DNA from: Stegostoma tigrinum
Taxonomy: Eukaryota
Assembly: GCF_030684315.1 (NCBI RefSeq)
Contig: NC_081373.1
Span: 39,781,989 to 39,845,988 of the forward strand
Direction of reading: 5' to 3'
DNA: 64,000 nucleotides
The notes below the pieces were generated by a model. The model was given only the letters and a program-made list of their open reading frames with translations, did not search any database and was not told the origin of the DNA. Shown one piece after another: positions 1,014-40,779 of this stretch. Every line of letters begins with the position of its first letter. Position 1 is the stretch's first letter. Both the position numbers and the translations under genes were made by a program.

Positions 1014-3125
1014 ATTTGTGTCAATCAGCAAATATAGATGTATTTCAGCCTCAACTGTTCAGTTCTAAACACCAGACTTTAGGAAGGATATGAAGGCATT
1101 AGATAGTTTGGCAAATTGGCAGATGGAGGAAAGGTAAAAAATGCAGGATATATAGTGAGTGAAACTCTGTCTCGAGGCATGAGGTGGAATATGTAGGCAG
1201 TGACAGAGTGACAATATCTAATTTCTATTTCATGTGGTGAATGAAAGGAGTGATGGTCTATTTTGCAGTCCCAAGAATTGCATCCAGAAAGTATGAATAT
1301 ATATTCCTTGTCAAAAACTACAGCTGGTCTTGGTGTTCTATACAAACATACAATGAATACATACCATCTTGAAAATTCTCCTGTGCTGGAACTGACCACT
1401 CGTATAAGTCAACATCCCTTTAATGTAGGAACAGTGTTGCTCCTTGAACCCTGACCTAAGCTCTATTCTGTTACTCAATATTTGCAATTATTGGCAGTCA
1501 ACTAGCTGGGTCACATGCGTGGGCAGTGACGATTTGGAAGAATTTCATGACCTAAAAAAGTATTGCTATAATAGTTATGGCAGTGAGAGCAAGCCTGGAT
1601 GCTTCCTGGGGATGCTTTTAAGATATGCCATCCCCAACAGTGATTTGCAGATGCTGTGGGAAATGTGTGTTCTAAATGTAAGTCCCAGTGCATTTAACAC
1701 ACAAATGCCTTTATTTTTCTGATAAGTACTGCTGCTCTTTTCTTCACATTGGGATATGATACCGGAGAGCCTCACAGAGTAAACATTTGCCAAGTGTGCT
1801 CCTATCTATGAGTAATAAAGTCCAAGGTTCTAACTTGATTTCAGATGGTCCTGGTGATTGTAGATCATGGCATCGGCATGAGTATTTATTTTGTTCATTT
1901 TATGCTGTATCACTGGTACTTACGTTTACAGTGTGAAAACCTCAGCCCAGTCTACACCATTGCCAAATTCATGGCACCTGTTTTGAGGCAAGCATCTAAA
2001 ATAGGTGATTGCTTGAAAATGAAATCTGGAGCTTTAAACTCTGTAAATAATCACTTTCTCAAACTGACTACCACAAAAGCAGGGCAGGTAACTGTCATGG
2101 CACAATTTGAATTCTCCAGTGGATGGCAGCCAAAATTAAGTTTCTTGATATGGTTTATCTTGAAAGACAGTCCCAAAAACTGGGAATGTCAGGAGTGCAG
2201 AAGGATGTATTGGACTAACAACTCATTGTCTAGTATAAAGGTAATTGCATTTGTGGAAGGGACATGGACTTCATGATCTTTCATATTATTAAACAGCTAA
2301 TAAAGAAACTATTTGATTTTTAAAAGTACACCTTTAGCAGAGCATTGACTTCAAGTGCTTGTGTGTTCAATTTTCATTTGTCCCGTTAGATAGCATCTGT
2401 ACGTTGATGGAATAATACCTGTTCCTGTTTCTGTAACTTCTGTGGTTCAAAGCTACATGGAGAGTCACATGTGTAAACTAAAGATATCCCAACTTCAAAC
2501 TTTTGGCAGTTATGAAAAACTGTTGTTCGTTACTGTTCAGTGAATTCTAGATGTTTTCTGGCAGCAGTTACAATGAACTTCGATATTTGCTAACCAACTT
2601 TCTCAGAGATGTTATGATACCTGGAAAAAATGGGACTTGATGCCAAGCCTCCCAGTTTTAGAGGTGGGGACACAATCATTGCACAACAAAAACCCATTGT
2701 GTTGGCTATTGTGTGTTTAAACAGAGTGCTGCACTGTGGACTGCACTTTAGTTGAGTTCAGATATATCCCCTGATATGTACTGAAAAAAAAATCCTGATA
2801 CGTAAGGTGTAGTAACTTTGCTATCAGGTTAGCAGCTTTAATTGTTAATTGTGTCTGCAAGTGTGTGCCAACAGCAGCTTCCCTGCTTAACTTGCACCTT
2901 CTTGGGCACTGGGCTGTGGGGAGCTTGTGACAGCTGACCTAGGGGCAGTGTACTTTCTAGCTGGCACGATGTGATGAAACTGTTTTCTATTTGTCCTTTT
3001 GTGATGGTTTCTGCACCTATTGTCACCTTCTCCCTCTCTTCCAGTACTCAACAGAGGTGAGTTAACACTAACTGCTTCTTGCACACTAAGGATGTCCAAA
3101 CCAAGCAATCAGTAATTGACTGCAA

Positions 3126-3346
3126 GATAATAAAATGTGAGGCTGGATGAACACAGCAGGCCAAGCAGCATCTCAGGAGCACAAAAGCTGATGTTTCGGG
3201 CCTGGACCCTTCCAGGCCCGAAGGGTCCAGGCCCGAAACGTCAGCTTTTGTGCTCCTGAGATGCTGCTTGGCCTGCTGTGTTCATCCAGCCTCACATTTT
3301 ATTATCTTGGAATTCTCCAGCATCTGCAGTTCCCATTATCTCTGAT
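3126..3346. mobile_element. Palindromic non-autonomous derivative of the Neptune-like PLE 3' end
   Basis: ~85-bp near-perfect inverted arms, nearly identical to 62631-62718; extra ~38-bp tail on the right arm; exact 15-bp TSD AGTAATTGACTGCAA at 3111-3125 and 3347-3361. Confidence 0.9.
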
Positions 3347-4010
3347 AGTAATTGACTGCAACTTAATTGTGTACAGTTTTACCTGCTCTATTGAATAAGC
3401 TATTGCAAGGGGTGGCAGCTCTGAAAATCATGGAACAAGTGTCACTCTCCTGAACTAAGCAGTGTCTCTTTTGAGTTTCATGCAGAAAAGGCTTGTCCAA
3501 GGAGAAGGAGAATGCCCTAGAATTAAGAGAAAAAGAACTGCAGTAGTTTCAAGGTATGCACTTCACATTATTGGCAGTGTCATAAATTAAGCTTCTGGCA
3601 CATACAAATTCCTTGTTCTTCAGCGATATAACAGAGGGGAAATTTGCCAGACCTTCCATTCTAAAATCATGGGGAGCCTGTCCCAGTGAAATGTGGTCCA
3701 AGTATGTATTGCTTGTTGCTTCTTTGGCTCAGATATCAGGAGCAAATGATAGCTGCTGAAAAATGATCTGTTGCCAAATAAAAAATAAGCAGATGAGAAT
3801 AAAATGCTTTTTGCTGCATCATAGCTTTAAACTTTTAAACCAAGTTTTGAAGTCAGAGCACAGAAAAATTGAGTGACGCATAAAACAGATCACTGACTCA
3901 AACCTACTGGCTGGGTAAGCTAATAATCAGACCCTTAGGTTAGAGCCTTGATGAACCTAATGTTAATCTACTATCAGTAGTAGCTCACTAAAAATGAAGT
4001 GGGTTACCAC

Positions 4011-4221
4011 CGTAGTGATTATAATTAAGTCAACCAAGTGGACCTCCTAGAATGTGAGTTCTCTGATTATGGATGTTAACCTGGTCAAATCAGGGAGCCG
4101 TGGTCTACAGATAAGAACAGGCATGACAGAGGTTCTGGGAGCTGGTTCTGAGGAAGCTGGATCCACGTGTAAATAAAGTGTGACTTATTGACAGGATACT
4201 GGCCTCTGTTGAATTATTTCA
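4011..4221 (+). mobile_element. Solo LTR of the Gypsy family found at 42528-47052
   Basis: Colinear similarity to both provirus LTRs (cagggagcc, gaagctggatc, gtgtaaataaag, tggcctct..tttca); flanks ACCAC/AGCAC form a 5-bp TSD with 1 mismatch. Confidence 0.8.
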
Positions 4222-4261
4222 AGCACTGCCTTTACAATAACTCACCAGACGTTAATAAATG

Positions 4262-4427
4262 AGATGACAAGGTGTAGACCCTGATGAACGCTTTTTCTAA
4301 AGAAGGATCTAGGCCCAAAACGTCAGCTTTCCTGCTCCTCTGATGCTGCTTGGTCTGCTTTGTTCATCCAGCTCTACATCTTGTTACCTCAGATTCTTCA
4401 GCATTGGCAGTTCCTACTATATCAGAG
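4262..4427 (+). mobile_element. Older PLE-end mini-element with a short inverted 5' arm
   Basis: Decayed hammerhead region (ctaaagaaggatctaggcccaaaacgtcagc) plus body and tail; ~30-bp inverted arm at left; TSD GT(T/G)AATAAATG at 4251-4261 and 4428-4438. Confidence 0.75.
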
Positions 4428-5719
4428 GTGAATAAATGTTCTCTTTTGACTGTTAGTTTAATAAGTGAAGTGATACTGTGTATGCATAACATTAATGATT
4501 TGTCAGAAGCCTTTAAGATTTTTAATTGATTGCTGGAATATACTGATGGGTAGAACAAATCAATGCATTTAATTTTCATTTAGGGAAGATTGCTGAATAA
4601 GCCCTTCTGCTGAAGATGGCTTTTAATAAAGACAATGACATACCGCACTTTTGGGGCAAAGAATCTCCCAGGAATGTGCAGTAACATGAAGTGACATGAT
4701 ACTATTGAACAACCTCTCTGGCCCTAAAAAAAAACTCTCAAATCTGGAGTCTCATTCCCCCTGAAGAAAATTTAAATGTTGAAAATTTTAGCTTTTTTAG
4801 AAATTTCTGTTTGGTAGTTGAAGTTTTTCCTTTTACTTCCACACGATTATCTTGATAATTATTTCAACTTCTGTACACTGATTTAATGGTACTTTTTGAT
4901 TCTGTCCTGAGAATCTTCATCTTGATTAGTTAATCAGTTTCCTCACTGCATGCCCTGTTCACAGACCCAACAGATGTTACATAGAGGACACCAATTCCAA
5001 TTTCAAATCCATGGCAGAAAAGCAAAAGCCTCACTCTGAGTCTCGCTACAACTCTGTCAGAGGATTTTTATCAAGGTGAATGACATGTGTCGTGCCTTCA
5101 TCAGTAACCAGAAAACCTGTCTTGTGATGTTTGCACAGCAAAAATGACTTTGCATTACATTCGTGACATTTGGCTGTGAACTTAATCTGTAGCTGAAAGT
5201 TATTTCTGATCAGTGCCTATCCATGAACATAAATGAGAAATTGCTAGTGTTCTCTTTTCAAGGGTCGAGTATTCTTATTGTAACTGATGTATCTGTAACT
5301 GTCTACATTTGGACTAAGAAGTGAAATCTCCAATTTCCATTTATGCATATTGCAATGGATGCTTTACAATCAATTTTGACATTTCTACTTCCTGACTGGC
5401 TTAATAGAGGTGAATTCACAACAAGCCAAGAAACTTTCAATAAGTTGTAAAGACGCTTTGTTTTTGTGTAGTTTTAACTAGCTTTTGTAAACAAGCATGA
5501 TTATGGATTTTTTAAATATTAGCCTAATTATAATATATCCTATTCTGCTTTACAATAACCTGTTGGAGTAATGCAGCTACTTCCTTAAAAAACATTAGGA
5601 GAATGCAATGACAAAGTGCATTTGCTCACTACCAGACCAACCACAGAGAGATGGGTATAAATTTGATTTCCCCACACTGATCCCGCTGACATCAGTGTAG
5701 AGAGCAGCTTCGGAGTAAC

Positions 5720-13519: not shown

Positions 13520-16500
13520 TGACTAACAAATCACACACTATACCAAAGAATAGATTGTTGTTGTCACATCTAAAAGTGATAAAATGTCTGTAACAGTTAG
13601 AATAGTGACAGCCGAAGGAGAGTGATCAACAGATGTGGAAACAATGCAGTGATGTGTTGGATTCATGGACTGTTTAGCAAAGTTCTTGTCTGATATGCCA
13701 TCAGAGTGTGACCCTCCATGCAAGTACCTTGTTTAGTACGTACTGTTAAGGAACAGAACAAGAAGCATCTATCACTAGAATCAGACAAGGAGTGATGACA
13801 AAACAGTGCCAAGGTACTACAGTGTCAATGATGAAGTCACATTGCAGCTTGATGCTAGTGACTTGGAGCAATGTTTATGCAGCATGGACAACTAGTTGTA
13901 TTCACATCCAGGGCATAGGATTGGATTGGGAAATACAACACCGTACATCATCTCCGCACATCCCAGTCATATGGAGAGGCACAGCAGCACCAAAATTGCT
14001 GAAGAGCTCATAAAGATGTTGACTAAGTCCAATACTAACTAGTGTAAGGCACTCTTTGAATGGAGAAACACATGGAAAGTAATCTAATCAAATTTAATGT
14101 CATGACACATCTAAGTTACTTCTCCAATCATGAAGAATCAATTGAAGCCAGAAGTCATATTCGATTTGAGAGATAAAATCAAATGACAGAAAGCCAATTT
14201 CACATCGATAAACTTCTGTTTCATTGCCAGACCTGAATATTGGAGAGCCAGTCAGACTGGGAGCAATTGTGCCATGGTAAGGGCACTATAGACATGTGGA
14301 GACTGTTTAAGGAACAGTTGTTGCAAGTGATGAGTAAATATGTCCCTCTGAGACAGGCAAGAAGGGGTAAGATAAAGGAACCTTGGATGACGAGAGCGGT
14401 GGAGCTACTCGTGAAAAGGAAGAAGGTAGCTTACATAAGGTGGAGGAAGCTAGGGTCAAGCTCAGCTAGAGAGGATCACATGCAGGCAAGGAAGGAGCTC
14501 AAAAATGGTCTGAGGAGAGCCAGGAGGGGGCACGAGAAAGGCTTGGCAGAACGAATTAGGGAAAACACAAAGGCATTTTACACTTATGTGAGGAATAAGA
14601 GAATGGTCAAAGAAAGAGTAGGGCTGATCAGGGATAGCATAGGGAACTTGTGTGTGGAGTCTGAGGAGGTAAGGGAAGCCCTAAATGAGTTTTTTGCTTC
14701 TGTCTTTACGAAAGAAATGAACTTTATAGTGAATGAAACCTTTGAAGAGCAGGTGTGCATGCTGGAATGGATAGAGATAGAGGAAGCTGATGTGCTGAAA
14801 AGTTTGTCAAACATTAAGATTGACAAGTCGCCAGGCCCGGACCAGATTTGTCCTTGGCTGCTTTGGGAAGCGAGAAATGCAATTGCTTTGCCACTTGCGA
14901 GGATCTTTGCATTCTCGCTCTCCACTGGAGTCGTACCTGAGAACTGGAGAGAGGCAAATGTAATTCTTCTCTTCAAGAAAGGAAATAGGGAAATCCCCGG
15001 CAATTACAGACCAGTAAGTCTCACGTCTGTCATCTGCAAGGTGTTAGAAAGGATTCTGAGGGATAGGATTTATGACCATCTGGAAGAGCATGGCTTGATT
15101 AAATGCAGTCAACACGGCTTTGTGAGGGGTAGGTCATGCCTCACAAACCTAATCGAGTTCTTTGAGGATGTGACTAGAAAAGTTGATGAGGGTCGAGCTG
15201 TGGATGTGGTGTATATGGACTTCAGTAAGGCATTTGATAAGGTTCCCCATGGTAGGCTCATTCAGAAGGTCAGGAGGAATGGGATACAGGGGAACTTAGC
15301 TGTCTGGATACAGAATTGGCTGGCCAACAGAAGACAGCGAGTGGTAGTAGAAGGAAAATATTCTGCCTGGAAGTCAGTGGTGAGTGGGGTTCCAGAGGGC
15401 TCTGGGCCTCTACTGTTTGTAATTTTTATTAATGACTTGGATGAGGGACTTGAAGGATGGGTCAGCAAGTTTGCAGATGACACAAAGGTTGGAGGTGTCA
15501 TTGACAGTATAGAGGGCTGTTGTAGGCTGCAGCGGGTCATTGACAAGATGCAGAGATGGGCTGAGAGGTGGCAGATGGAGTTCAACCTGGATAAATGCGA
15601 GGTGATGCATTTTGGAAGGTTGAATTTGAAAGCTGAGGCCAGGATTAAGGATAGGATTCTTGGCAGTGTGGAGGAACAGAGGGATCTTGGTGTGCAGATA
15701 CATAGATCCCTTAAAATGGCCACCTAAGTGGACAGGGTTGTTAAGAAAGCATATGGTGTTTTGGCTTTCATTAACAGGGGGATTGAGTTTAAGAGTCGTG
15801 AGATCTTGTTGCAACTCTATAAAACTTTGGTTAGACCGCACTTGGAATACTGTGTCCAGTTCTGGTTGCCCTATTATAGAAAAGGTGTGGATGCTTTGGA
15901 GAGGGTTCAGAGGAGGTTTACCAGGATGCTGGATGGACTGGAGGGCTTATCTTATGAAGAGAGGTTGACTGAGCTTGGACTTTTTTCATTGGAGAAAAGG
16001 AGGAGGAGAGGGGACCTAATTGAGGTATACAAGATAATGAGAGGCATAGATAGAGTTGATAGCCAGAGACTATTTCCCAGGGCAGAAATGGCTAACATGA
16101 GGGGTCATAGTTTTAAGCTGGTTGGAGGAAAGTATAGAGGGGATGTCAGAGGCGGGTTCTTTACACAGAGAGTTGTGAGAGCATGGAATGCGTTGCCAGC
16201 AGCAGTTGTGGAAGCAAGGTCATTGGGGTCATTTAAGAGACTGCTGGACATGTATATGGTCACAGAAATTTGAGGGTGCATACATGAGGATCAATGGTCG
16301 GCACAACATCGTGGGCTGAAGGGCCTGTTCTGTGCTGTACTGTTCTATGTTCTATGTTCTAATGCAGATGTTCAAAGGACTCAACAAATGTCAGTCCATG
16401 TGAAAACTTGTGGAGCAATTGTGAATGACCAGCTATATTACCAGAAATGCAGACATATGTACATCTAGAGAAGCTGTTCTTTCACGGCAGGTAGCTGATC

Positions 16501-20683: not shown

Positions 20684-21350
20684 GTTAGTCAAAATAGTCT
20701 GTAAACATAATAGGAAAGCAGGAAATATTTTCCCTACTGTTTTCCCAATGAATAACATTGAAAATTCAATGAGGAAACCCCGTGTGCCAGAAACCTTTAA
20801 GTGAAATGCCTGGTAAGATTAGATCGCTTTTTGAGAATTGTTATTAATCAAGGCCAATTATCTCAAACTGCAGTAACCTAAAAGGCTTTTCACTTTCTGA
20901 AGTGCTTTAGATCTTCTCTCTTTGCCAAATGTTTAATGTAGCATTATCCAGTACAGATCTGTTGCAGTTTGCAAGCCTGCAAATTGTGCTTTGTGACATT
21001 ACAGTGTGATCTGAAGGACAATGTGCAAATTAATTAAACCGTTTATTTTAATAGAGAAGTAACAGGCCTTGAAATCTGATCAGCTAGTCAATATACCTTC
21101 CAACGTGCTTTCTAATTGAGTTGGCATGGTGTTAGGATATGGCTGAATTGTTTACCTGTGAAGCCCCTTTAAATCTCTTTTGCTAGACCGACATGTGCAA
21201 GACCTTGTGGAAAACTTGGGGTTTTGGCATGGCTGCATATTTTAAAGAAAGCTTTGGAGCTCATTGTTCATCTCCAAGCCTGAATGATGAGACTCGTAGC
21301 AAAGCTTACATTAGAGCCTGGCCTTTTGTTATTGTTAAGCTGGTGAAATC

Positions 21351-21766
21351 GATTAATACTTATGCAAATAATGGGTCAGTGTATTGCAGCTTCCTCCATA
21401 TGACTGGTTTTCCTAGAGATGACTGAAACAAGCTGTGTTTAGGAAAACCAAGTCTGCATTGCGCAAGGGAGCCCTTAAAGAGTAGATTGGAAGATCAGGC
21501 CATGGCAATATTGGCCCTTGGTATTGCCCTGGCTGTAGCAGTGCTGGATAGGTAGTACTAGCAGTAATCAGGACACTTAAATTGAAGGCCGGCCATGACC
21601 CATCTGTATTGAGCATGAGTTCAGGTTGAGCATCCTGTTTAAGGCTTCCCTTGCGCAATGCAGACTTGGCTTTCCTAAGCGCAGCTTGTGTCAGCCACCT
21701 CTAGGAAAAGCAATCTTACAGAAGAAGCTGCAACGCACTGACCCATTATTTGCATAAGTATTAATC
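21351..21766. repeat. Long inverted repeat (129-bp arms, ~158-bp spacer); MITE-like or conserved hairpin
   Basis: Arms 21351-21479 and 21638-21766 align ungapped with ~16 mismatches; outer 31 bp perfect; ATGCAAAT in each outer end. Confidence 0.9.
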
Positions 21767-22104
21767 AGTTTCAGTCCTGGAAACGTCCCTGAAGATGTTT
21801 CATTTGGCCCATAAAGATGTGGCGAATGATGTAATTCTGACTTGCAAAAAAGAAATCACTTGCTGCTTCTCAGGTTGAAGGCTTTAGGACATTGTTTAGC
21901 ACTTGAAGAATAAATGTTGCGTTGTCAAGTTTCTAACCCAAACTATTTGAAATAAATGGAATAAAACCTGAATTTAAATAGCAGGCAAAGTCATCTCATG
22001 CAAGTTTGTTAGGAATTCGGAGTAAGTTTTTTAAACAAGTCATTTGAAGAGATATTTGACACCAAATTGCAGAATAATTTTTAGATCACTTACACGTGGA
22101 CTTT

Positions 22105-25990: not shown

Positions 25991-26805
25991 ATATCTTCTC
26001 AGTTCAATTTTAGTTGGCCCTGAAATCTGACTTTAAACTTTATTAACTTTCATTATCTCTTGTAGTAATTTTTTTTTATCATATTGTGAATTTCATCCAA
26101 ATCGAAGTGTCTTCTAAACATAATTTTGCTGAAGTAGGTTCATTGCTCTCATGAGGAAGTATGCTGCCTGATGAATAAAGGCTCAGAAATTCACCTCGGA
26201 TGCTTGTGCAAAAGGATTAATTTGAGATAGATTGTCTGTTACAAGCTGCCTAATATTTAGTTACAATAATATCAGGAAATCTAAGGGAATCTTGCCACTG
26301 CAGGCATGCTGATAACCCCCAACATAAACCACCCCCCTGCCATGAAAGAAAAAGAAGACTAGTGTCCCACAGTATCCCTGTCCCAAGCAAAGCTCTTCTG
26401 CACTAAACATCAGTGGCTTTCTCTCACATGAAAATTGTTGTAATCTTCTTTTTGCACATCTCCAATCTTATTTGTTAACAACTTTTATTAAAATAAAGAT
26501 TAAAAAAAATTATTCTCTGGAGACACTCACCTTTTCATGTATGTTGAAATTTCTAAGTTAGAAAGAAGCCTACCTTGAAAATATTTGTGAGATTTTGTAG
26601 AGTATGTCCATCACACATAACTGTTGTCTATTTGTTCGAGTACTAGTCGACTATTGCCTCTGATGACATCTTCCTCAAACTTTTTTCCAAACCCTTTCAG
26701 CAGCCACATGCAATCATTCCAACCCAGGAGGTCTCTTTCAGTCGGATAGGAACAGAACAGGGAATTTGTTAGTCTTTGTAATTATAAAATGAAATGATAA
26801 CTTCA

Positions 26806-27822
26806 TCATCAGTGAGCCTCCGACAAAGCGCTGGTGTTATGTCCCACTTTCTATTTATCTGGTTAGGTTTCGTTGGGTTGGTGATGTCATTTCCTGCATT
26901 GGTGATGTCATTTTCTGTTCTTTTTCTCAGGGGATGGTAGATTGGCTCCAAATCAATGTGTTTGTTGATGGAATTCCGGTTGGAATGCCATGCTTCTAGG
27001 AATTCTCGTGCATGTCTCTGTTTGGCTTGTCCTAGGATGGATGTGTTGTCCCAATCAAAGTGGTGTCCTTCCTTATCTGTATGTAAGGATACGAGTGATA
27101 GTGGGTCATGTCGTTTTGTGACTAGTTGATGTTCATGTATCCTGGTGGCTAGCTTTCTGCCAGTTTGTCCAATGTAGTGTTTGTCACAGTTCTTGCAAGG
27201 TATTTTGTAGATGACGTTCGTTTTATTTTTTGTCTGTATAGGGTCTTTTAAATTCATCAGCTGATGAATTTAAAAGACCCTATACAGACAACAAATAAAA
27301 CAAACGTCATCTACAAAATACCGTGCAAGAACTGTGACAAACACTACATTGGACAAACTGGCAGAAAGCTAGCCACCAGGATACATGAACATCAACTAGT
27401 CACAAAACGACATGACCCACTATCACTCGTATTCTTACATACAGATGAGGAAGGACACCACTTTGATTGGGACAACACATCCATCCTAGGACAAGCCAAA
27501 CAGAGACATGCACGAGAATTCCTAGAAGCATGGCATTCCAACCGGAACTCCATCAACAAACACATTGATTTGGAGCCAATCTACCATCCCCTGAGAAAAA
27601 GAACAGGAAATGACATCACCAACACAGAAAATGACATCACCAACCCAAGGAAACCTAACCAGATAAATAGAAAGCGGGACATAACACCAGCGCATCGTCA
27701 GAGGCTTACTGATGATGTTACCTAGAATGTTGATGAAATGTCTGAAAACTAACCTTCCAGCTCAGCGAGCAAACTCACATCCAGAACCTCAACCTGAGCT
27801 ACAAATCTTCTCAAAACTCGCT
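26806..27822. mobile_element. Poseidon/Penelope-clade PLE 3' fragment as a spacer-less head-to-head palindrome (GIY-YIG endonuclease region)
   Basis: Mirror ORFs 26769-27257(-) and 27264-27725(+) with NVIYKIPCKNCDKHYIGQTGR; 455-bp arms meet at ..catcag|ctgatg.. (27260/27261); 12-bp TSD ATGATAACTTCA at 26794-26805 and 27823-27834. Confidence 0.93.
27709..27742 (+). ncRNA. Degenerate minimal type I hammerhead ribozyme motif (Poseidon-like PLE)
   Basis: CTGATGA-t-GTTACC-tagaat-GTTGAT-GAAA-TGTC; paralogues at 36825-36858(+) and 35023-35056(-) restore GGTGAC-GAAA-CGTC. Confidence 0.6.
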
Positions 27823-29763
27823 ATGATAACTTCAGTTTATCTCGCACTGATTTTCATTTTAAATTGTCACAATGGGTTTTGTAAGCCTTGAATTTTGAAT
27901 TAGTGTCACTTTGGACTCCTGGTCCATGGATCCAAACAGGTCAATTGACAGAATCTACAATATCTAAAAGATGATAATCTAACAGTTTGGGTCTTCCTGA
28001 GTGCAGGGTGCCTAGTTAAAGTTTCAGCTGAGATTTAATGTAACTCTAAAGTATCGCTTTCAAGAAAAATAGTAGGATGATTGAATTTTCTTGCTGGCTC
28101 TCATTCCTTATTGGAACTTATTGTTTCTATATTTGATAAGAGTAGATACAGAATTAATGAAACTAATGGTTGCATTTACTTGCATGGAAAACTATGAAAA
28201 AGTAAATGTGATAGAGAGCTTAATAAAAGTTATTAAAATTTCCCGCCCATGTAATCGGTCGGAGAATATGAAAAGACTCAGGAATCTAATTTCAGGCACA
28301 GCAGATAAGGGGACATCTATGAGAAGGGGTAAATCAATGCAGAACTGAGGATGTTGTACTTAAATGCACGCAGTATGTGATAAAAGGTGTGGTTGATATT
28401 AGCAGGTACGGCGTTGTGGTATCACAGAAAAGTGGCTGCAAGGGGATCGGATGCACATCCTTTGGAAAGGATAGGCAGAGGGGGCGGTGTTGCCTTGTTC
28501 CTAAGAAATGAATTTAAGTTCATAGGAAGAATCATACGGTATCTGAAGGCATAGAATCTGTGTGGGTAGAGTTGAGCAATGACAAAGGAATGCATGACTC
28601 TGATGGGAGCTGTGTGTAGGCCTCCTTGCAGTAGTCAGGATGTAGGGCAGAAAATAAATCTGGCGATAGAAAAGGTATGTAAGAAAGGCACTATTACATT
28701 AATCATGGAGTACTTCAGTAGGCAGGTGAGCTGGGAAAATCAGGTTAGTAGTAGATCCCAAGAAAAGGACTTCATGGAATGTCTACAAGATGGCTTTTGG
28801 AGCAGCTTGTGGGAGAGCCAACAAGGGAACAGGCAATACTGGATTTGGTGATGTGTAATAAGGCAGATGTATTAGGGAGCTTAAGGGGGCATTGTCTGTC
28901 TGATAGAATTCACCCTGCAGTTCGACTGGGAGAAACTGGAATCAGAGGTAACAGTATTACAATTGAATAAAGGTTAACTACAAAAATATGTGGATGGAAT
29001 TGATTGAAGGGGAGCTTAGCAGAGAAAATAGTGAAGCAGCAATGGCAGGTGTTTCTGGGGGTAATTTTGGAGGCTGAGCAGAAATTCATCTCAAGGAAGA
29101 AGATATATACAAAGAAGAACACAACCATGGCTGACAAGGAAGTCAGGGACAGTTTAAAAGCAAAAAAGAAAACACACAAAGTTGTGTAAGTTAGTGGGAA
29201 GTTAGAGAATTGGAAGTCTTTAAAAACTAGCAGAGGACGACTGAAAAAGAAATAAGGGGAGAAGATGAAATATAAGAAATGAAGAACAAAGGAATGGGAG
29301 GAACTGAACAGTCTTCACAGTGGAAGACACCGGTAGTATAGCAAAATGTCAAGAGAGTCCGGGGACGGAGATAGGTGTAAATGGCATTATGAAGGAGAAG
29401 GTGTAGTGAAACTGGAAAGGTCTGAAGGTGGATAAATCACCAGGATTGAATGGACTACACCCCAAAGTTCGGAACAAAACAGCTGAGGAGATTGTGGAGG
29501 CATAGGTAATGATCTTTCAGGAGTGGCTAGAGTCAGAGAGGATCCCAGATGACTGTAAAATAGCTGATGTAGCACCCTTTTTTAAAGGGGATGGAGGTAG
29601 AAGACAAGAAATTACAGACCAGTTAGCCCAACCTCAGTCTTTGGAATTAAATATTAAGGGTGAGATTGTAGAGTACATGGAAGTGCATGGTAAAATGGGG
29701 CTGAGCCAGCATCACTTTGTCAACGGGAGGTCGTGCCTGATAATCTGTTAGCATTATTTGAGG

Positions 29764-30909
29764 TATTGACTGTCGCTGTCCGAGTCAACAGTCAACCCCA
29801 TGAATGTGAATTTAGAAGGTACAGAGTACTCCTTCACAATTCACTCTTATTCTCAAAGGTATCAAGTATATAAATATCAAATATGAAAAGTATCCAAATA
29901 TCAAAATATTCCCAAATACAAATTGTAAACAGTTAAGAGAAACTACGCTAGTCATCCTTCAGCTAACTTATTACCGCACTTGAATCAAAACACATTTACC
30001 CAGAAATGCTCAGCTAGCCAGGTTGCACAATTCTTCACCTCCACCTCCACTTTCACCTGCACCTCCACCTCCACCTGCACATTCACCTGCTCCTCTACCT
30101 CCACCTGCTCCTCCAAATCCGCCTGCACCTGCACCTCTACCTGCTCCTCCACCTCCACCTGCACCTGCACCTCCGCCTCCACCTGCTCCTCCGCCTGCAC
30201 CTCCACCTCAGCCTGCACCTGCAGCTCCACCTGCACCTCCACCTCCACCTCCACCTGCACCTCCACCTGCACCTGCATCTCCACTTCCACCTGCACCTCC
30301 ACCTGCACCTCCACCTGCTCCTGCACCTCCACCTGCTCCTGCACCTCCACTTCCACCTGCACCTCCACCTGCTCATGCACCTCCACTTCCACCTGCACCT
30401 CCACCTGCACCTGCACCTCCACATCCACCTCCATCTGCACCTTGACCTGCACCTCCACCTCCACCTGCACCTCCACTTCACCTGCACCTCCACTTCCGTC
30501 TGCACCTGCACCTCCACCTGCACCTCCACATCCATCTGCACCTGCACCTCCACTTCCACCTGCGCCTCCACCTTCACCTCCACTTCCACCTCCACATCCA
30601 CATCCACCTCCACCTCCACCTCCACTTCCACCTGCACCTAAGGGGTTGCTTATGTGTTGTTATACTAAAGAGTTTAGATGAAACTGGTCTTTATCCCTGA
30701 TCCCTGTTTGATTTCATCCAACCAGAAATCTCCACATTGTGTTGCAAAGTGCTCACCCTCCAAACAGGTACCAGAACTGCTTCCTTTTTTCCTAGATTGG
30801 TCCAGGTAACAGCTATTATGTACATGACTGTTAACTTGTTCACTCATTCAGCTTGAGCAACTCACAGTCTCTCCATTTGAGCCTCAACCCTGGTCACGCC
30901 TGGCCAACA
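29764..30909. mobile_element. Unclassified insertion, possibly a solo LTR, containing a hexamer array
   Basis: Interrupts the CR1 ORF; ends t(a)ttgac.. / ..ccaaca resemble TGTTG..CAACA termini; TSD ambiguous. Confidence 0.4.
30036..30638. repeat. Compound hexamer tandem array (CCACCT/GCACCT variants), ~100 units
   Basis: Direct reading; produces the spurious poly-Pro, Cys/Thr/Ser and Val/Glu/Gln ORFs. Confidence 0.95.
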
Positions 30910-31501: not shown

Positions 31502-34500
31502 AGAGTCATGGAGTCATACAGCATGGGAACAACCAGTTGATCCAACAACCCATGCCAACCATAATCTCTAACTACGCTAGTCCCACCTGTCTGCGTTTGA
31601 CCCACATCCCTCCAATCCCTTCCTATTCGTGTACTTATCCAAATGTCTTTTAGACATTGTAACTGTACCTGCATTTATCATTTCCTTAGGAAGTTCATTC
31701 CACACGTCAACCACTCTGTGTTAAAAAAAAAGCCTCTCATGTGAGCCTAAACATCAACTTTCTGCTCCTCTGATGCTGCCTTGCCTGCTGTGATCCTCCA
31801 GCTCCACGCTGTGTTGCCTCTCATGTCTTTTTAAAATCCTTCTCCTCTCAACTTAAATATATGCCCCTTCATCCTGAATTCCCCCAACGTATGCGTTTAT
31901 GCATGATCATCTGTGTGTGATTTAAATGGCAGAAAATAAAAGTATAAAAGGGAAAAGACGCCTGCCATTCAGCTCATCTATACCCTTCATTATTCTATAA
32001 ACCTCTATAAGATCACTTCTCAATGTCTTACACTCCAGTGAAAAACGTCCCAACTTGTCCAGCCTCTCCTTATAACTGAACCTTTCCATTCCCAGCAACA
32101 TCCTGGTAAGTCTGTTCTGAACCCTCTTCAACTTCATAATATCCATTCTATAACAGATGGCCCAAAAGTGGACATGGCACTCCAGAATATGCCTCACCAG
32201 CATCCTGTACGACTTCAACATAGCGTTCCAACTTCTCCATTCAAAGATCTGAGTAATGAAAGCAAGCATGCTAAATGCCTTCTTAACCACCTAATCTATT
32301 TGTGATGCAAGCTCCAAAGAGTTGTGTACCTGAACCTCTAGGTCTCTCTGTTCTGCAATGCTGCCCAAGGCCCTACTTTTAACTGTATAAGCCTTATCTT
32401 TGTTTTACCAAAATGTAATACCTTGCATTTATCCAACTTAAATTCCATGTGCTACTTTTTAGCCCATTGGCCCAATTGATCAAGATGTCTTTGTGATCTT
32501 AGATAACCTCCTCCACCACTATACCACCAATCTTGGTGTTATCTGCAAACTTAATAACAATACTTTCTGTATTGTCATCTAAATCATTTATATAAATTAC
32601 CAGCAAAAGTAAACCCAGTACAGAAACCTGTGGAACACTGCTGGTCACAGGTCTCCAGTCTGAAAACCAGCCCTCCACCATCATTTCTCAGTTTCCTGTC
32701 ATTAAGCCAATTTTGTATCCAATTGGCAAGGTCACCCTGAATCCCATTTTATCTAAGTTTACTAATTAGTCTACCATGTGAAACCTTGTCAAAGGCTTTA
32801 CCAAAGTCCCAAGTAAACAATGTTTATCACTCTGCCCTCATCAATCTTCTTGGTAACTTCCTCAAAAAAACTCAATCAAGTTTGTGAGACACAATTGCCC
32901 TTGCACAAAACCATGCTGACTATCCCTTATTGTTCCTTGCCTGTCCAAATGCATAAAACTCCTATCTTTCAGAATCATTTCCAACAACTTACCTACCACT
33001 GAGGTCAGACTTCTAGGTCTGTAGTTCCTAGGCTTCTCCTTACATCCCTTCTTAAACAAAGGAACAGCATTAGCCACTCTCCAGTCATCCAGCACCTTAC
33101 CCGTAGTAATAGATGATACAAATATTTCCACAAGAGGCCCCACAATTTCCTTCCTAACCTCCCACAAGGTTCTGGGATACACTAGATAAGGTCCTGGCAG
33201 TTGATCCATCTTCATGTATTTTAAGACCTCAACATTTCCTCTTCTTCAATGTAAACTATTTTTGAAATGTCAATGTTTATTTCCCTGAGTTCGCTAGCCC
33301 TTATTTCTTCCTCCACAGTAAAAACTGTTGCAACATATTAAGTTAATATCTCTCCCATCTCCTGAGTTTCAACACAAAAATGACCTTTTTGTCTTTTAAG
33401 AGGCCCTACTCTCTTTCTAGTTGCTCTCTTGTTTTAAAAGTACTTGTAGAATCTCTTTGGATTACCCTTGACCTACCAACCTTACCTTTTACTGTAACAG
33501 GAACATGATAACTCTCATTATTGCTCTTCTGAAACCTTCTCACTTACCTGACGTCATTTTACCTGTCAACAGTCCACTTCAATCAATTTTTGAAAGTTCT
33601 TGTCACATACTATTAAAATTGGCCTTGCTATAATTAAAAACTTTAACTTTTATGTATGGCTTATCCATTTCCATAACTACTTTAAAACCAATAGAATTAG
33701 GATCACCGGTCCCAAAGTGTTCCTGACAATCACTTCAGTCACGCTTCCTGTCTTATTACTGGAGAGAAGGTCAAGTTTTGCCCCTTCTCTAGTAGGAACA
33801 TTTACATATTGATAAAGAAATTTTCTTGAACACAGTTTGCAAATTCTTCACCATCCAAGCCTTTAACACAATGGTACTCCCAACCTTATTATGTTTACAT
33901 ATATCTCAGATGTCCAGACATATTTGCTTCTCAATTTCCCTCTGACTGTTGAGGGGCCTTTAGTACAGTCCCATTAAGGTGCTTATTCCCTTTTTATATC
34001 TAATTTCAACCCATATATTTTCACTGGATGAGTTTTCAGAAGTATCTTCTGTAATCTTTTGCTTCTTTTTCTATCTTTCCTATAGCATCAGAAACCTGGC
34101 ACATTGAGCTACCAGTCCTGTTCATCTCTCAGCCAAATTTCTGTAATAACTAGAATGTCTCAATCCCATTTTCCCAGACATGGTCTGAGTTCATCAACCT
34201 CACCTGTGAGACCCCTTACACTGAAATAGATGCAGTTTCATTCTTCAGAGTTACTTCGCTCTCTGACATACCTGAGTCCGTCTTTTCTAATTAACTTGTT
34301 CTTTTCAGATTCAAAACCATTCTTATCAATCTTTCTGTTTACTCTCCCATTTAAGATCTCTTCACCCCTACTCTCTAAAAGTTTACAGTCTGTCTTCATA
34401 GAATTAGCAAATTTTCTTGCAAGGATATCAGTCCCTTTCCAATACAGATGAAACTCATCCCTTTTGAACAGGTCTTTACTGCCCCAGAAGAGATCCCAGT

Positions 34501-34700: not shown

Positions 34701-34982
34701 TCAAGACAGCTAGATATGCAAGAGCAGAGATGTACTGCTGAGGCCATATAAGGCTCGAGTCAGACCATGTTTGGAATATTGTGAATAGCTTTGGGCCTTG
34801 TATCTAAGGAAGGATGAGCTGGCATTGTTGGGTTCCAGAGGAAGCTTGGAGGAATGATCCCATGAATGAAGGGCTTGTCATATGAGAAGCGAATGAGAAC
34901 TTTGAGGCTTTACTTGATGGAGTTCAGCATAACGGGGGGGAATGTCACTGAAACTTACAGAATACTCAGAGGCCTGGATAGA

Positions 34983-36935
34983 GATTCTTGACATGCTCGT
35001 CAAGCTGGCTTGTTTTCATTCGGACGTTTCGTCACCATGCTAGTTAACGTCGTCGCTGTGGCCTCTGATGAAGCAATGTTGTTCTACTGCACTTCATATT
35101 TATATGATCAGGCCTGTTAAGTGAGCTTGTGTCATTTCTGGTGTTTTTTGCAAGTGTTTGTATATGGGGTCTAATTCCACATGTGCATTGATTGCATGAT
35201 GGATGGAGTACCAGGCCCTTAGGAATTCCCATGTGTTGGTCACGTCGTCCCAGTTAAATTGATCACCTTCATTGTCCAAGTGCATGAAATGAGGGAAAGT
35301 TTGTTGTGTCGCTTTGCTGCTAGCTAGTGTTTGTGTACCCTGATGGCAAGTTTCCTTTCTGTCTGACCGATGTAATGTTTTTGGCAGACCTTGCACAGTA
35401 TTCTGTACACTCTGTTGGTCCTGCATGGCATGGGTATGAGTCTTTGGTCCTTGTGAGTGTTTGTCATAGAGTGGCTGTGGGCTTGTGTGCTACAGTCATT
35501 CCTCATGGTTATAGGAGTCTTATTGTCAGTTCCGATACGTTCTTGACTTTCGGTATTGTGTCCTGTTGGTGTTGTCTATCTGGTAGGCACGTGTGGATGA
35601 AGTTGGTGGGGTATCTGTTGATAGTCAAGACCTTGTAAAAGTGTTCTTTCTCCTTCTTGAGAAGTTTGGGTTTCTGACAGTGGATGTGGCCAGTTTGAAT
35701 GGTGTCTTTACACCGCTTTGCTATGGAAATTGAGGATTTGGTCAGTGTGGGTTGTCTTCCTGTATGCTGTGGTTTGGAGTTCCCTGTTCACCATTCGTTC
35801 TGACCTGAGATCAAGGAATGGAAGTTGATTGTTGTTTTCCTCTTCTGTTGTAAGTTTCATCCGGGTGAAGGCGTTGTTGATGAGGTGTTGTGTCTCTTCT
35901 AACTTAGTGCACTTAATGATGATAGATGTGTCGTCCTCGTATTGGATCTACCGTTTGACTGTATGTGGGGGAGGGTCATGCGCTCCAATCTCTGTATGAC
36001 TGCCTCTGTAATATGTACTGGGATGGGTGACCCCGTTGGTGTGCTATTGATTTGTTTGTATGCTTGACTGTTAAAGGTGAAGTGTGTGGTGAAGGACAGG
36101 CCCAGTAGTCTGAGTATGTTGTTCTTGCTGATAGAGCCATCATTCCTGTTTCCTCTAGTCAGTGTTTCTATGGCTAGTGGGATGTCAACAGATGTGAATA
36201 GTACTGTGGATTGAAAGGATACCATAATCTCATCGTTGTTGATTTTGATGTTCTGAGGTTATTAAGAACTCCTGGGTTGAGTGGATGGATCGGCTGATCC
36301 GTTGACCGTGTGTTTCAGTCTTTATTGTAGGTCCTTGGCCAGTTTGTGTGAAGATGTGCCCAGTAAGGAGACAGTGGGTCTGAAGAGTTGTCTGGTTTGT
36401 GTACTTTGGGAAGCCCAGAGAAGCAGGGTGGGGGCGTGGGGTGGGGTGGGGTGTGGTGTTTGAGCCTTCTGATTCCATTTTCATGTCGTTTATCTTGGTT
36501 ATTTGTCATGCAGCTTTTTTAGTCTCTTCAGTGTTTGGGTGATTCTATGTTGGTAAGTGTTTGTATATGCAAGCAGTGCCTGCGATTTTTCAATGAAGGC
36601 CATCAATTTAACTGGGACAACATGACCATCCTAGCTCAAGCCAACCATAGACATGCACAGGAATTCCTGGAGGCCTGGTTCTCCACCCATAATAAACATG
36701 TGGAATTAGACCACATATCCAAATCCTTGCAAAAAAGAACTGGAAATGACAGAAAACACCTCAACAGACCGGATCATATAAATACTAAGAGGAGTAGAAC
36801 AACATCGCTTCATTGGAAGCCCCACTGATGATGTTATCTAGCATGGTGACAAAATGTCTGAACTCTAATCAGCCATCTCAGCGAGCAAGTTAACAACCTC
36901 ATCCATAATCCGAGTGAAAATCTTCACGAGAAATT
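34983..36935 (-). mobile_element. Old Poseidon-like PLE (RT plus GIY-YIG, minus strand) with inverted 3' copy at ~36591-36935
   Basis: Frameshifted motifs FSGLPKVHKP, MVSF..LFTS..TTHFTFN..YKQIN.TP.GSPI, VYRILCKVCQKHYIGQT; + arm HQFNWDNMTILAQANHRHAQEFLEAW; probable TSD 34970-34980 / 36940-36950. Confidence 0.85.
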
Positions 36936-38419
36936 TAGAAGGCCTGCATACTGTTGACATGGAGAAGATATCCCTACTAGTAGAAGAAACTAGAACCTGA
37001 ATGCACAGTATCCGAGTGAAGGAATGACCCTTTAGAACTGAGTTGAGGAATTTCTTGAGCCAGAGGGTGGTGAACATGTGGAACTCATTGTCACGGAAGG
37101 CTGTGGAGGCCAAGTCATTGAGTGTATTTAAGAAAAAGATAGATCAGTTCATGGTTAGTAAGGGGATCTGGGGTTACAGGATGAGGGTAGGAGAATGGGG
37201 CTGAGAAGCATATCAGCCACGATCGAATGGTGGAGCAAACTTGATGGGCCGAATGATCTAATTCTGCTCCTATATCTTATGGTCTTATGGTTTTAAGTCA
37301 ATCGCAAAGTTTTCCTCATAACATTTGTGATGATTTTGGGTAGGGTTGAGAGACCAGGATCATATGAGACACACTGTAGGTGTACCATTTTTTTAAAATG
37401 TCATAGACTGAAACTAGGTGTGAAGGTTTTAGCAACATGGCTTACACCGAAGTCTATTTGAAATTGTATACTTCACCACGAGTGAAGCTGCAGAAATCGA
37501 CAGAATTAGGTGACATATTATTTCCATTTCTTCTTTTGACCTAAAAACACAACATCCTAGTTTTTTTCTGTCAGTCTCTTAGGAATGCATGCACAGTTGT
37601 TTCATCTGTGATAAATGATCTTGCAAAAGACCAGGAGCACACTTGGGATTGGAAAAATAAACATTGCATGCAAGACTACTATGCTGAAATCTTCATCTTA
37701 CTTCGAGGTAGATGAGCAACATTAAACGTACCAATTTGTAGCAACATTAAATGAAAATCAGTCCAAGACTGCTTCAGATTATGCTTGTCTTCTCAGCCAT
37801 TCAAGTCTGTGGGCCTGCATCAAGGTTCTTTCTCGGGTCAAAATTTGTAATGAAAATTAAAGCACTATTGTTCATGACAACTGAAGTGTAATGATGTTGC
37901 TACCAACTCCTTAGAAAGAAATGGCCTTAAACTGTCTACTTTGCACACTTCTTAGGCATGCTGTTGGAACATAACATCAAATATTGATTAATTTGTCCTG
38001 TGAATGTGGTGTAATTTTCCTGCAATTAATTCCATCAGAGGCAAGTACTATATTGGCATTCCTTTCCCTGATTTAGTTTTGAACAAAACTAGCCTGATTT
38101 CCACACAAACCTGAAGTTATTGTCTGCAGGCTAGTAGTTAGGTGTGGCAGGAGACTACAAACACAGACAAACAGAATAATTCTTTGAAGAGCGACTAAAG
38201 GGAAGGGTCCAATGCAGTTTTAGGATGCCTGAGGCAGGGGAGGTGTAATAGATTGTGGACTACCTTGGAGACATCTGTACCAGGCCCTGTCCTCACTGGT
38301 GTTGTTAAAATTTGGTTGAGTCTGGAAAGACATCATCAGACTTTTGACTTCTGGGTGAAGGCCTCATCCACCTCCCAAAACACATTTGTTAAATTGCCAG
38401 ACTGCTTGTGGCTCTGGTG

Positions 38420-39990
38420 ATTGCTAGGACACCTGGCAGGGTGGCTAATGTTGTACCACCGTTTAAGAAAGGTAGCAAAGACAAGCCAAGGAATGACAGG
38501 CCAGTGAGCCTGACATCAGGATCAACCAACATTCGGATCGTTAAGATTTGATTAGGGATAGTCAGCACGGATTTGTGCGCAGGAAGTCATGTCTGACAAA
38601 CCTTTCAGTGTTTTTCAGAGAGGTAACCAAGAGGGTAGATGAGGGTAGGACAGTGGATATTGTCGCTATGGACTTTAGTAAGGCCTTTAACAAGGTCCCA
38701 CATAGTAGGCTAGTCATGTAGGTTAGGTTGCATGGGATCCAGGGAGAGGTAGCTAATTGGATTCAAAATTGGCTCAATGGTAGGAAGCAGAGGATGATAG
38801 TTAAAGGTTGTTTCTCAGACTCATGACCTGTGACTAGTGGTTTGCCACAGGATCAGTGCTGGGGCCTTTGTTATTTACATAAATGATGTGGATGTGAGTG
38901 AACAAAGCATGATTAGTAAGCTTGCAGATGATACAAAATTAGGGGGTATCATCGAATACGAGGAAGGTTATCAAAAATTACAGAGGGATCTTGATCAGAT
39001 AGGGAAGTGGGCTGAGGATTGGCAAATGCAATTCAATACAGAAAAGTGTGAGGTGTTGCACTTTGGAAAGTCAAACAAAGGTAGGACTTATATAGGTCCT
39101 GAGGTGTGTTGTGGAACAAAGGGACCTAGGAGTACAAGTATATAGTTCATTGAAAGCGGCATCACAGGTGGACAGGATAGTGAAGATGACATTTAGCATG
39201 TTGGCCTTCATCTGTCAAGGCTTGGGTATAGGAGTTGGGACATTATGTCATAGTTGTATAAGTCATTGGTGAGGCTGCAATTGGAGCATTGTGTACAGTT
39301 TTGATCACCCCATTAAAGGAAAGGCATTGTTAAGCTAGAAAGTGTGCAAAGAAGATTCACGAGGATAACACAGTATGGAGCTGGAAAAACACAGCAGGCC
39401 AGGCAGCATCAGAAGAGAAGGGAAGTCCTCCTCCTCTGATACTGCCTAGCCTGCTGTGTTCTTCCAACTCCATATTGTGTTATCTCTAACTCCGGTGTCT
39501 GCAGTTCTTGCTGTTGCAAATTTACAAGGAAGTTGACAGGTTTAGTAAGCCTGAGTTATTGGGAGAGGTTGGCCAGGACAGGACTTTATTCCTTTGAAGG
39601 TAGGAGAATGCGGGGTGTCCTAGTTGATGTGTATAAAATCATGAGGAGCTTAGATGGGATGAATGCATGTGGTCTTCTTCCCAGGGATGGAGAATTGAAA
39701 ACTAGAGGGCATAGGTTTAAAGTGAGAGGGTAAAGATTTAAGAAGGATCAGAGGGGCGACTTCTGCACACAGAGAGTAGTGTGTAAATGGAATGGGCTGC
39801 CAGAAAACGTGTTTGAAGCAGGTTCAGTAGCAACATTTAAAAAACATTTGGATAGGTACATTGATGGGAGGGGTTTGGAGGGATATGGTCCAAATGTGGA
39901 AATTGGAACTAGCTGAGTGGACACAATGGTCACCATGGACCTGTAAGGGCTGAAGGGCCTGTTTCCATGCTGTATTACTCTATGATTCAA
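38420..39990 (+). mobile_element. CR1 LINE fragment (RT to 3' end)
   Basis: ISKLADDTKLGG..LQRDLDQIGKWAEDWQMQFNTEKCEVLHFG; tail ctgtattactctatgattc. Confidence 0.88.
39364..39517. mobile_element. Palindromic PLE-end mini-element inserted in CR1
   Basis: Inverted arms gataacacagt..gcagcatcag / ctgatactgc..gtgttatc plus a right-hand tail; degenerate TSD agattcacgagga / aaatttacaagga. Confidence 0.8.
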
Positions 39991-40779
39991 TGATAACGGA
40001 ATCTCCTATTCTTGTCAAATGGACAGGGTTAAAATGTCGGCAACCATTTGGAGAACAAGTGAAATTAATGTACACAATAACAGGAACTACAGCTGAAGGA
40101 AATAATCTTTGTTCAAGGCCAAGATGTGCCTTTTGATCTTTATTTGCTGAGCTTGCAATGCATCAGATTTTACAACTATAAGTTTGATGACTTGTACAGC
40201 TGAGAGCTGTACCGTGCTCATTTGATGCTCCAGAAAATTAGCAGCCTTTGTGTAATTTTGATGTTTTGAAGTCCTGGCTGTGATAACTTGGTCTCATCTC
40301 CCACTTGCATTCCGCCTTCAGCTTGGCACAGTTATTCTCTAAATTAATTCATGTTGTCCCTTATACTAGCTTTAAAGCCTAGCTTTAATTCTTTTTGTAC
40401 AAGTTTCCTCTCATCTGAAAATATTATCTCATGCCAGCGTTCCACAGACTATAAAAGTGATTGTGTTTCATGTTTGAGGGTGGGTGAATGTTGCTATGCA
40501 ACTTAACTGTTGTTGGCACGACAGTTGAGACTGAACCATTCTTCAGTGATTGTCCACCTTTTGGATAATAATCAGGAACCAAGCTAACTCCACTCTTAAA
40601 CTGACTGCTCTTTCCAAAACACAGGAGCATTTATAGCACACACTAGCAATCAAACCTAACACCTTCTGGCTGAGATTGCACAGCAGTACACTGTTCTTAT
40701 TAATCGTTAATTACGAGTGAGTAATTCATGGCCCTTCTGTGAAAATAAATGAAGACGTGTTATTTTGAGGTTACGGATT

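Follow-up and report, generated by a model that had tools for sequence, protein, structure and literature searches.

The 5' ends of a Neptune-type Penelope-like element (PLE) family are unevenly distributed and pile up genome-wide at the 5' edge of the hammerhead core, at about 45 times the uniform expectation; an original prediction made from the 64 kb stretch of DNA analyzed here (the window) had placed a cluster of such ends at the hammerhead. We regard this hotspot as probably real. The reading that we favor, at a probability of about 45%, is that the inner ends collect at the core edge through run-off of the reverse transcriptase (RT) at the 5' end of its RNA, with the ribozyme neither cutting nor blocking. 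The architecture of these elements is known and the gain is in mechanistic detail: the pattern bears on how PLEs build their inverted pseudo-LTRs (pLTRs) and on what the hammerhead does, and the evidence points away from cleavage and toward the RNA 5' end or the boundary of a protein-bound module. The family is present in very many copies, initiates at two fixed sites and has a 5' boundary that it prefers, and so constitutes a large natural data set.

Penelope-like elements in the window

LINE remnants and PLEs are abundant in the 64 kb window of animal DNA, whose repeat seems to resemble sequence of cartilaginous fishes, and the PLEs belong to two families, one Neptune-type and one Poseidon-type. 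The Neptune-type members are two long arms (copies A and B) and nine short arms distributed across five loci. Copy A (59898-61015, minus strand) is a long inverted arm containing the tail, the 3' UTR with a hammerhead core at 60022-59995, and the end of the EN coding region; copy B (61100-62718, plus strand) is a long, direct, tail-less arm. Reference coordinates below are those of copy A, whose plus strand is antisense, with core residues C3 and G8 at 60022 and 60017, the predicted cut at 59995/59994, and the tail-less and tailed 3' ends at ~59928-59933 and ~59898 respectively.

Copy B contains an ORF remnant (61220-62401) carrying the RT thumb, a CxxxxCxxC linker and a GIY-YIG-type EN. Its top homologues are 40-53% identical and carry PF00078, PF26215 and in some cases PF01541, and the FLYIG and HYIG motifs align in its frame, as expected of an EN+ PLE RT with a C-terminal GIY-YIG domain; a direct Pfam scan returned no family for this fragment and missed both PLE fragments. 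The linker reads CNHRKCYTC, and a zinc-finger-like CX2-5CxxC linker between RT and EN is a Neptune feature (PMC8557442; here and below, published work is cited from the accessible sections of each source). On these sequence features we provisionally assign copies A and B to the Neptune type.

At seven of the eight PLE loci tested a target-site duplication (TSD) of 10-15 nt encloses both arms, with two mismatches in each of the imperfect TSDs at the 39364 and 4261 loci; the one exception is the long pair at 59898-62718, where a search found none. Because the TSD encloses both arms, each pair is taken as a single insertion with its 3' ends facing outward and its truncated heads facing inward. 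Each of the five Neptune-type pairs has a tail of ~36 nt on one arm and none on the other, and a single tail-less arm at 31743, which has a TSD of its own, shows the tail-less end to be an independent start site. The inner junction is most simply explained as the joining of two cDNA 3' ends, and a single-strand fold-back would be less simple.

The pairs thus have an inverted 5'-truncated partner, a 30-40 nt tail at one end, a short TSD and, by motif scan, a hammerhead motif inside the terminal repeat. Canonical EN+ PLEs have an inverted 5'-truncated copy, an optional 30-40 bp tail and a short TSD, and those described previously, both Neptune and Penelope/Poseidon, similarly show head-to-head arms, a tail at one end, a pLTR hammerhead and palindromic inverted junctions (PMC8557442, PMC3846280), although the TSDs reported for Adineta PLEs are 8-10 bp rather than the 10-15 nt seen here. 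This inverted, tailed and TSD-bounded layout has therefore already been described, and the elements are ordinary EN+ PLEs. In the accessible sections of these two papers we found no mapping of inner-end positions relative to the hammerhead.

An insertion at 3126-3346 and other short arms

The segment at 3126-3346 is one Neptune-type insertion, composed of two 3' ends placed head to head within a 15-nt TSD (3111-3125, repeated exactly at 3347-3361). The inverted arm (3126-3212, minus strand) is a tail-less PLE 3' end differing from the right arm at one position in 88 nt, and the direct arm (3220-3346, plus strand) has a ~36-nt tail and is 95% identical to copy A over 121 nt; both have their heads at hammerhead residue G8. 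Between them lies a templated 7-nt spacer, CAGGCCC (3213-3219, plus strand), that is identical to the stem II loop plus its 3' strand, so that its predicted origin from stem II holds. Both arms do begin with GAAGGGTC around this spacer, as was noted at the outset, but GAAGGGTC begins at core residue G8, just 5' of stem II rather than within it. The join at 3212-3222 reads TTC-CAGGCCC-GAAGGG, with TC and GAA microhomologies bordering the spacer, and the head position is ambiguous by 3 nt (G8 to G10.1) in that the insert at 3213-3222 is also readable as CAGGCCCGAA. At the inner junction of the long pair (60995-61110) a duplicate of ~60 nt (61015-61074, equal to 61158-61217) precedes the direct arm, and resembles a templated insert like CAGGCCC but larger.

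The pair at 4260-4426 consists of a short, inverted, tail-less arm (4260-4289, minus strand), which matches its own right arm at 25 of 30 positions (none of 5000 shuffles was as good), and an older-type direct arm with a tail (4291-4426, plus strand), whose head falls between ~6 nt upstream of C3 and G8 (4291-4302); TSD-like repeats lie at 4251-4261 and 4428-4438. The occurrence of CTGATGAA at 4281 is not a ribozyme core but part of the 30-nt left arm. The tail-less arm at 31743-31821 (plus strand), flanked by an 11-nt TSD (31732-31742 and 31816-31826), begins as predicted within stem II, specifically in its 3' strand. At 39364-39512 an old head-to-head pair with a tailed right arm is located inside a LINE remnant; its junction (39425/39426) does lie 3' of the predicted cut, with heads ~3 and ~6 nt 3' of it, positions that were read by eye in copies ~80-85% identical. 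This pair and a Poseidon-type pair at 34975 are both inserted in LINE-like sequence. Sequence comparison identifies a further old head-to-head pair at 49010-49191, with a 10-nt TSD containing one mismatch. Its tailed left arm (49010-49086) has its head ~48 nt 3' of G8 and is followed by a spacer of ~7 nt, and the tail-less right arm starts from G8 at 49095, confirming that it begins at the same base as both arms of 3126-3346. The original prediction omitted several heads that are far from the ribozyme: two belong to short left arms (4289 and 49086), two to the long arms (~61015) and four to the Poseidon-type arms, none of which was included.

Clustering at the hammerhead within the window is by itself suggestive only. 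Four of the nine short arms have heads within +/-1 of G8 (with 4302 scored as G8), for which simulation gives P values of 0.0002 when heads may fall anywhere in the UTR and 0.012 under a short null that restricts them to 59955-60030 of copy A. If the insertion at 3126-3346 (the 3123 pair) is counted once, three of eight short arms are at G8 (P 0.10 to 0.007), and if 4302 is also dropped, two of seven are (P 0.19-0.59, not significant). The proposed test of enrichment within +/-15 nt, which includes seven of nine arms, succeeds against the whole UTR (P 0.0002) but fails against the short range (P 0.39), and five of the nine short arms end well 3' of G8.

Poseidon-type pairs

The first of the two Poseidon-type head-to-head pairs occupies 26806-27822, with a 12-nt TSD (26794-26805 and 27823-27834) and a hammerhead at 27709-27742. 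Its inner fold is at 27260/27261, inside the ORF, where the sequence CAGCTG forms a palindrome with no loop; such a structure could not arise directly from a hairpin in one strand. The second, older pair (34975-36939) has its inner junction at ~36574-36591, also in the ORF, and an 11-nt TSD with one mismatch. The family has a hammerhead but no pyrimidine tract, and none of its four heads is located at its own ribozyme.

The left arm of the first pair does end at CTGATGA at 26806, as had been pointed out, but this is the outer (3', priming) end, beside the 12-nt TSD. Because it is an outer end and the fold is at 27260/27261, neither a fold-back nor a 5' truncation can be scored at this position. 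A relationship of this end to the ribozyme was rejected, as the end of the TSD (TAACTTCA) matches by eye seven of eight bases of the element antisense sequence TAACATCA, at a location one TCA repeat away; such target microhomology would be enough for internal priming.

The hammerhead and the adjacent pyrimidine tract

Minimal hammerheads are detected by motif scan at three positions, 62626, 60022 (minus strand) and 27709, in addition to an AT-rich, chance-like match at 4761; an Rfam search gave no hammerhead match at the gathering score. The minimal type I motif in copy B (62626-62655, plus strand) has CUGAUGA, an extra A, stem II and GAAACGUC, with a predicted cut after 62653. It shares with metazoan PLE type I hammerheads (PMC4209133) the CUGANGA core, the extra base before stem II, G10.1-C11.1, palindromic 15.2-16.2 positions and a very short helix I. 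Helix I of the candidate hammerhead has 2 bp by inspection, as is known for the D. virilis hammerhead (PMC4209133), and the predicted folds pair the core with itself instead. Starting from C3, the core also folds as a single 30-nt hairpin (-10.9 kcal/mol, equaled by none of 200 shuffles of a segment chosen post hoc), whose 5' and 3' feet in copy A are at 60022 and 59993.

Immediately upstream lies a polypyrimidine tract (62426-62625, plus strand) of 80% C/T that ends at C3 and has the same layout in copy A; precisely at that residue, pyrimidine content jumps (45% to 95%). Within the tract, TACTAAC occurs at 62459-62465, AG is absent from -186 to -24 (~160 nt), and a CCAG ends at 62603, 22 nt upstream of the core. 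It looks like a spliceosomal 3' splice site and, judged from these signals, suggests a pLTR intron in the Neptune-type element. The layout recalls an intron of D. virilis that terminates on the 5' side of helix I (PMC4209133), although the acceptor-like AG here is 22 nt upstream of the core. The acceptor itself was rejected as the breakpoint, since AG occurs at 60013 or 60045 in copy A and the genome-wide peaks are at 60017 and 60023.

The end of the tail (TTATCTCTGAT) and the ribozyme edge (CTCTCTGAT) have 8 nt in common, and a related motif is also present at the tail-less end (TTATCTYGGA; regions 3297-3346 and 62617-62634). Its occurrence at both 3' ends and the ribozyme edge may reflect a recognition signal for the RT or an aid to template jumping.

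Genome-wide positions of element ends

Public sequences were mapped at 85% likeness onto 59875-60264, using four of 19 runs: contigs of X1 and X3 (same organism), contigs of X11 (a related organism), and ~1% of the bisulfite run X14. The end figures come from listed entries, chosen not strictly by count (24 of the 1,895 loose ends, 15 of the 319 joints, and 12 of the 437 between-letter entries), and those for X1 and X3 are lower bounds. As a control, X1 shows 3' ends at both expected sites, ~35 nt apart (59933, at least 1433 contigs, and 59929, at least 346; 59898, at least 580, and 59896, at least 374).

The strongest 5' end among those listed is at 60023 (U2.1), one base upstream of core residue C3. 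It is found in at least 707 of 12,099 partly mapped contigs in X1, at least 675 of 12,130 in X3 and 85 of 1,424 in X11, exceeding the uniform share 43- to 47-fold. A lesser 5' end at 60017 (G8) is present in at least 130 contigs of X1 (~8 times uniform) and is absent from the ends listed for X3. The five listed joints of a head to a 3' end all start at 60011-60026 (at least 29, 7, 7, 4 and 3 contigs in X1).

We considered whether the peak is mostly an artifact of aligners clipping where subfamilies begin to differ, upstream of the conserved core, in a set made up largely of short copies, with microhomology of TCTCTGAT to the tail end adding to the effect. Divergence of subfamilies does contribute, and clearly so in X11, where the loose letters upstream of 60023 form a coherent purine-rich stretch for ~15 nt; because older subfamilies whose upstream sequence differs would also be clipped at this base, and because copy A has private changes at 60027 and beyond, the peak is partly confounded. 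The 8 nt shared by the tail end and the ribozyme edge could alone favor tandem joints there, and the window test, as noted, is not significant against the short-range null. In X1 and X3, however, the loose flanks behind 60023 are mixed as well as long (median 255), with an agreement of 0.38 (informative for only ~5 nt) that is like the 0.37-0.44 at true insertion ends. Moreover, the G8 peak is not adjacent to any private change of copy A; in the window, three arms enclosed by TSDs begin precisely at G8 and are preceded by letters foreign to the element; and bisulfite-resistant stems end at the core (see below). An explanation mainly by artifact is quite unlikely. The loose letters behind 60023 do resemble the CTTTT start of the 4291 arm, and older copies therefore likely start up to 6 nt further upstream.

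Read depth gives a view of the copies that pass the core. Summed contig depth falls by ~55% from 59953-65 to 60005-17 and by only ~30% from there to 60135-47, indicating that many copies end or fail to map before the ribozyme and that most of those reaching it pass it. Raw-read depth is level over 60096-60251 (17-23 thousand), and there are therefore few heads in that interval. These data bear on the idea that RT stalls or drops off on leaving the module and entering the C/U-rich tract, the ribozyme being only a neighbor; the cause may be splicing factors or poly-C factors bound there, or a structure formed by G-rich cDNA. The step in pyrimidine content exactly at C3 accords with such a stall, as do the signals resembling a branch point and an acceptor that both copy A and copy B contain, and so does the location of none of four heads at the ribozyme in the Poseidon-type family, which lacks the tract, but four arms are too few for a test and there is no continued drop-off inside the tract. 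We consider this explanation, the main rival to run-off, unlikely.

The location of the peaks is also informative about the ribozyme itself. If self-cleavage made the template's 5' end, at which RT then ran off, ends should coincide with the cut, and one minor tandem joint does start at the first base after it (59994 to 59898, listed in X1 and X3); the heads at 39425 are also within 6 nt of it. However, no 5' loose-end peak at the cleavage site is among the ends listed, and the two peaks at 60023 and 60017 are 22-28 nt upstream of the cut (59995/59994), on sequence that cutting would remove. Helix I is only 2 bp by inspection, minimal hammerheads cut poorly (PMC4209133), and in Anolis cleavage is dispensable in vitro and RNA-seq shows no ends at the cut (PMC11167929). 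Cleavage as the cause is highly improbable.

A block to RT by the hammerhead fold is also a poor fit, because an RT moving 3' to 5' would be expected to halt on meeting the predicted hairpin, at its 3' foot (59993), whereas the main peak is at the 5' foot (60022). The fold could nonetheless act, alone or through a dimer of template RNAs, by stalling both RTs and uniting the cDNA ends. Between C3 and a point 2 nt beyond the cut, the core forms an imperfect palindrome, with a predicted two-molecule duplex of -38.0 kcal/mol in addition to the hairpin; PLE minimal hammerheads have been proposed to act as dimers (PMC4209133) and a PLE protein is predicted to be dimeric (PMC11167929). The heads of the 3123 pair are both at G8, and those at 39425 are at the 3' foot of the hairpin. 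Against this, an RT would reach the main peak only after passing the fold, folding of the region in context is no better than shuffles (z 0.5-1.2), heads are asymmetric or far away in three of the five pairs, and the Poseidon RT read through its own hammerhead in vitro (PMC11167929), which makes stalling of this type decidedly unlikely. In a related model that we judge still a shade less probable, the near-palindromic hammerhead would be a pairing device and not a cutter: template RNAs would dimerize through it, each would be copied from one nicked target strand, and the cDNAs would end and join at the edges of the duplex. If so, the hammerhead would act like a retroviral dimer-linkage signal in building the inverted pLTR. 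Snap-back on stem II was rejected as the main route, a junction centered on its loop being unseen in the window or among the joints listed.

Inverted head-to-head joints are not among the 15 of 319 contig joints listed, and contigs drop such links. The sole inverted joint listed from raw reads, 60005/60021 (140 reads, 74 starts), says only that inverted junctions are common around the ribozyme; its exact position was rejected, as both edges coincide with clip points of bisulfite conversion. The commonest contig joints among those listed connect tailed (59894-59898) to tail-less (59931-59935) 3' ends on opposite strands (at least 57, 39, 7 and 3 contigs in X1; at least 60, 44, 10 and 4 in X3), and these could be tail-to-tail resolutions of a doubly primed target or contigs spanning the interval between two copies.

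The bisulfite run provides an additional observation. Sense-strand depth in X14 is 700-1,880 over 59927-60017, 267 over 60018-60030, 9-30 in the upstream tract and 24-188 in the tail, a contrast that is inflated in that reads from the upstream tract must be better protected if the filter is to retain them. Because fully converted reads could map only at 59985-60021, most of these sense reads must be unconverted. Hairpin stems resist bisulfite conversion; our literature search on this resistance found no papers. The unconverted reads are likely snap-back stems that run from the tail-less end to the core and seldom pass it, and they mark out the section over which inverted pairs are base-paired. 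In bisulfite data from such genomes, false methylation calls are also a likely consequence of PLE palindromes.

Model for the inner junctions

The claim that the ribozyme fold or its cleavage determines where reverse transcription stops can be retained for the non-uniform pile of 5' ends at the hammerhead genome-wide; the cleavage part is unsupported and a block to RT fits poorly. In the run-off model that we prefer, a dimeric RT-endonuclease would nick both target strands and cDNA would be primed from each, one per internal start site. A partial-tandem transcript would hold two copies of the hammerhead-to-tail module, one of them 5'-terminal and the other within the 3' UTR, so that priming in the 3' module would yield long copies, and priming in the 5' module cDNAs of 90-130 nt, limited by the RNA 5' end. 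That end could be the start of transcription or the product of 5'-to-3' trimming that stops at the module, which is protein-bound and forms a hairpin. Joining of the cDNA 3' ends would then proceed via microhomology or short templated inserts, as with TC, GAA and CAGGCCC at 3212-3222 and CAGCTG at 27260, and variable trimming or earlier drop-off before joining would place many heads 3' of the edge. The fold may mark the boundary passively, with catalysis playing at most a minor part.

Several of these steps have been described in vitro for an Anolis Poseidon element, including the dimer, the cutting and extension of both strands and two internal starts, and the length of the RT product there tracks the template 5' end, with the same band in ribozyme-dead mutants (PMC11167929). 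Several observations stand against run-off: the edge is no absolute limit, as contig depth falls only ~30% past it; the two sub-peaks (U2.1 and G8) are unlike one sharp start; and the acceptor-like signal 22 nt upstream argues that the normal start is further up, as does the Drosophila start site upstream of an intron (PMC2377424).

Relationship to known systems

A close comparison is with the Anolis Poseidon element PAc (PMC11167929), in which two RT start sites similarly bracket the tail, the hammerhead is just upstream, cleavage is dispensable, and both target strands are cut and extended by a predicted dimer. PAc differs in belonging to another clade, and its study addresses cDNA starts rather than 5' junctions. 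Palindromes at PLE junctions have been explained by self-priming on an antisense template (PMC3846280), but twin priming and end joining fits better here because there is one start site per arm and a templated insert. Opposite-strand pairs 100-700 bp apart have been noted for the minimal hammerheads of metazoan PLEs, and we found no breakpoint analysis in the accessible sections of that paper (PMC4209133). The function of the hammerhead in PLEs has been called unclear (PMC8557442).

In L1 twin priming both target strands prime cDNA and the inverted junction has microhomology, and the two parts do not overlap on the RNA. The pairs described here differ in that both arms copy the same segment, which implies two templates or two passes. 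The end at 26806 fits an L1-like internal priming by complementarity between target and RNA.

Animal non-LTR retrozymes (bioRxiv 10.64898/2026.07.22.740005) are also short, non-coding, PLE-derived and hammerhead-bearing. They form head-to-tail arrays in which every unit carries an intact ribozyme. The copies here, by contrast, are dispersed inverted pairs; most lack some of the core, and their limits do not coincide with the cut site. No tandem array of intact hammerheads is present in the window, and among the joints listed genome-wide, head-to-tail ones occur in tens of contigs. A 5'-end peak at the hammerhead edge was not found in the accessible PLE, hammerhead and retrozyme literature; the coverage in Fig. 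S2 of PMC11167929 may bear on it.

Other repeats in the window

Pattern scans for relatives gave no match in viral contigs (0 and 0), 0 and 4 loci in metagenomes and 2 in prokaryote genomes; all six loci match over only 22-31 nt and were rejected as chance. A 430-nt imperfect palindrome (74%) at 21344-21773 is single in the window, and searches of it for a TSD and a hammerhead motif found neither. There are two small dispersed repeat families (4012-4221, 42529-42763 and 46818-47052; 37211-37290, 55507-55590 and 58263-58341), both probably SINE remnants (67-81% identity), and LINE RT remnants (PF00078) are present at 14237-16273, 31969-33085 and 38433-39991. Finally, a 600-nt degenerate (CACCTC)n minisatellite at 30036-30639 yields spurious open frames.
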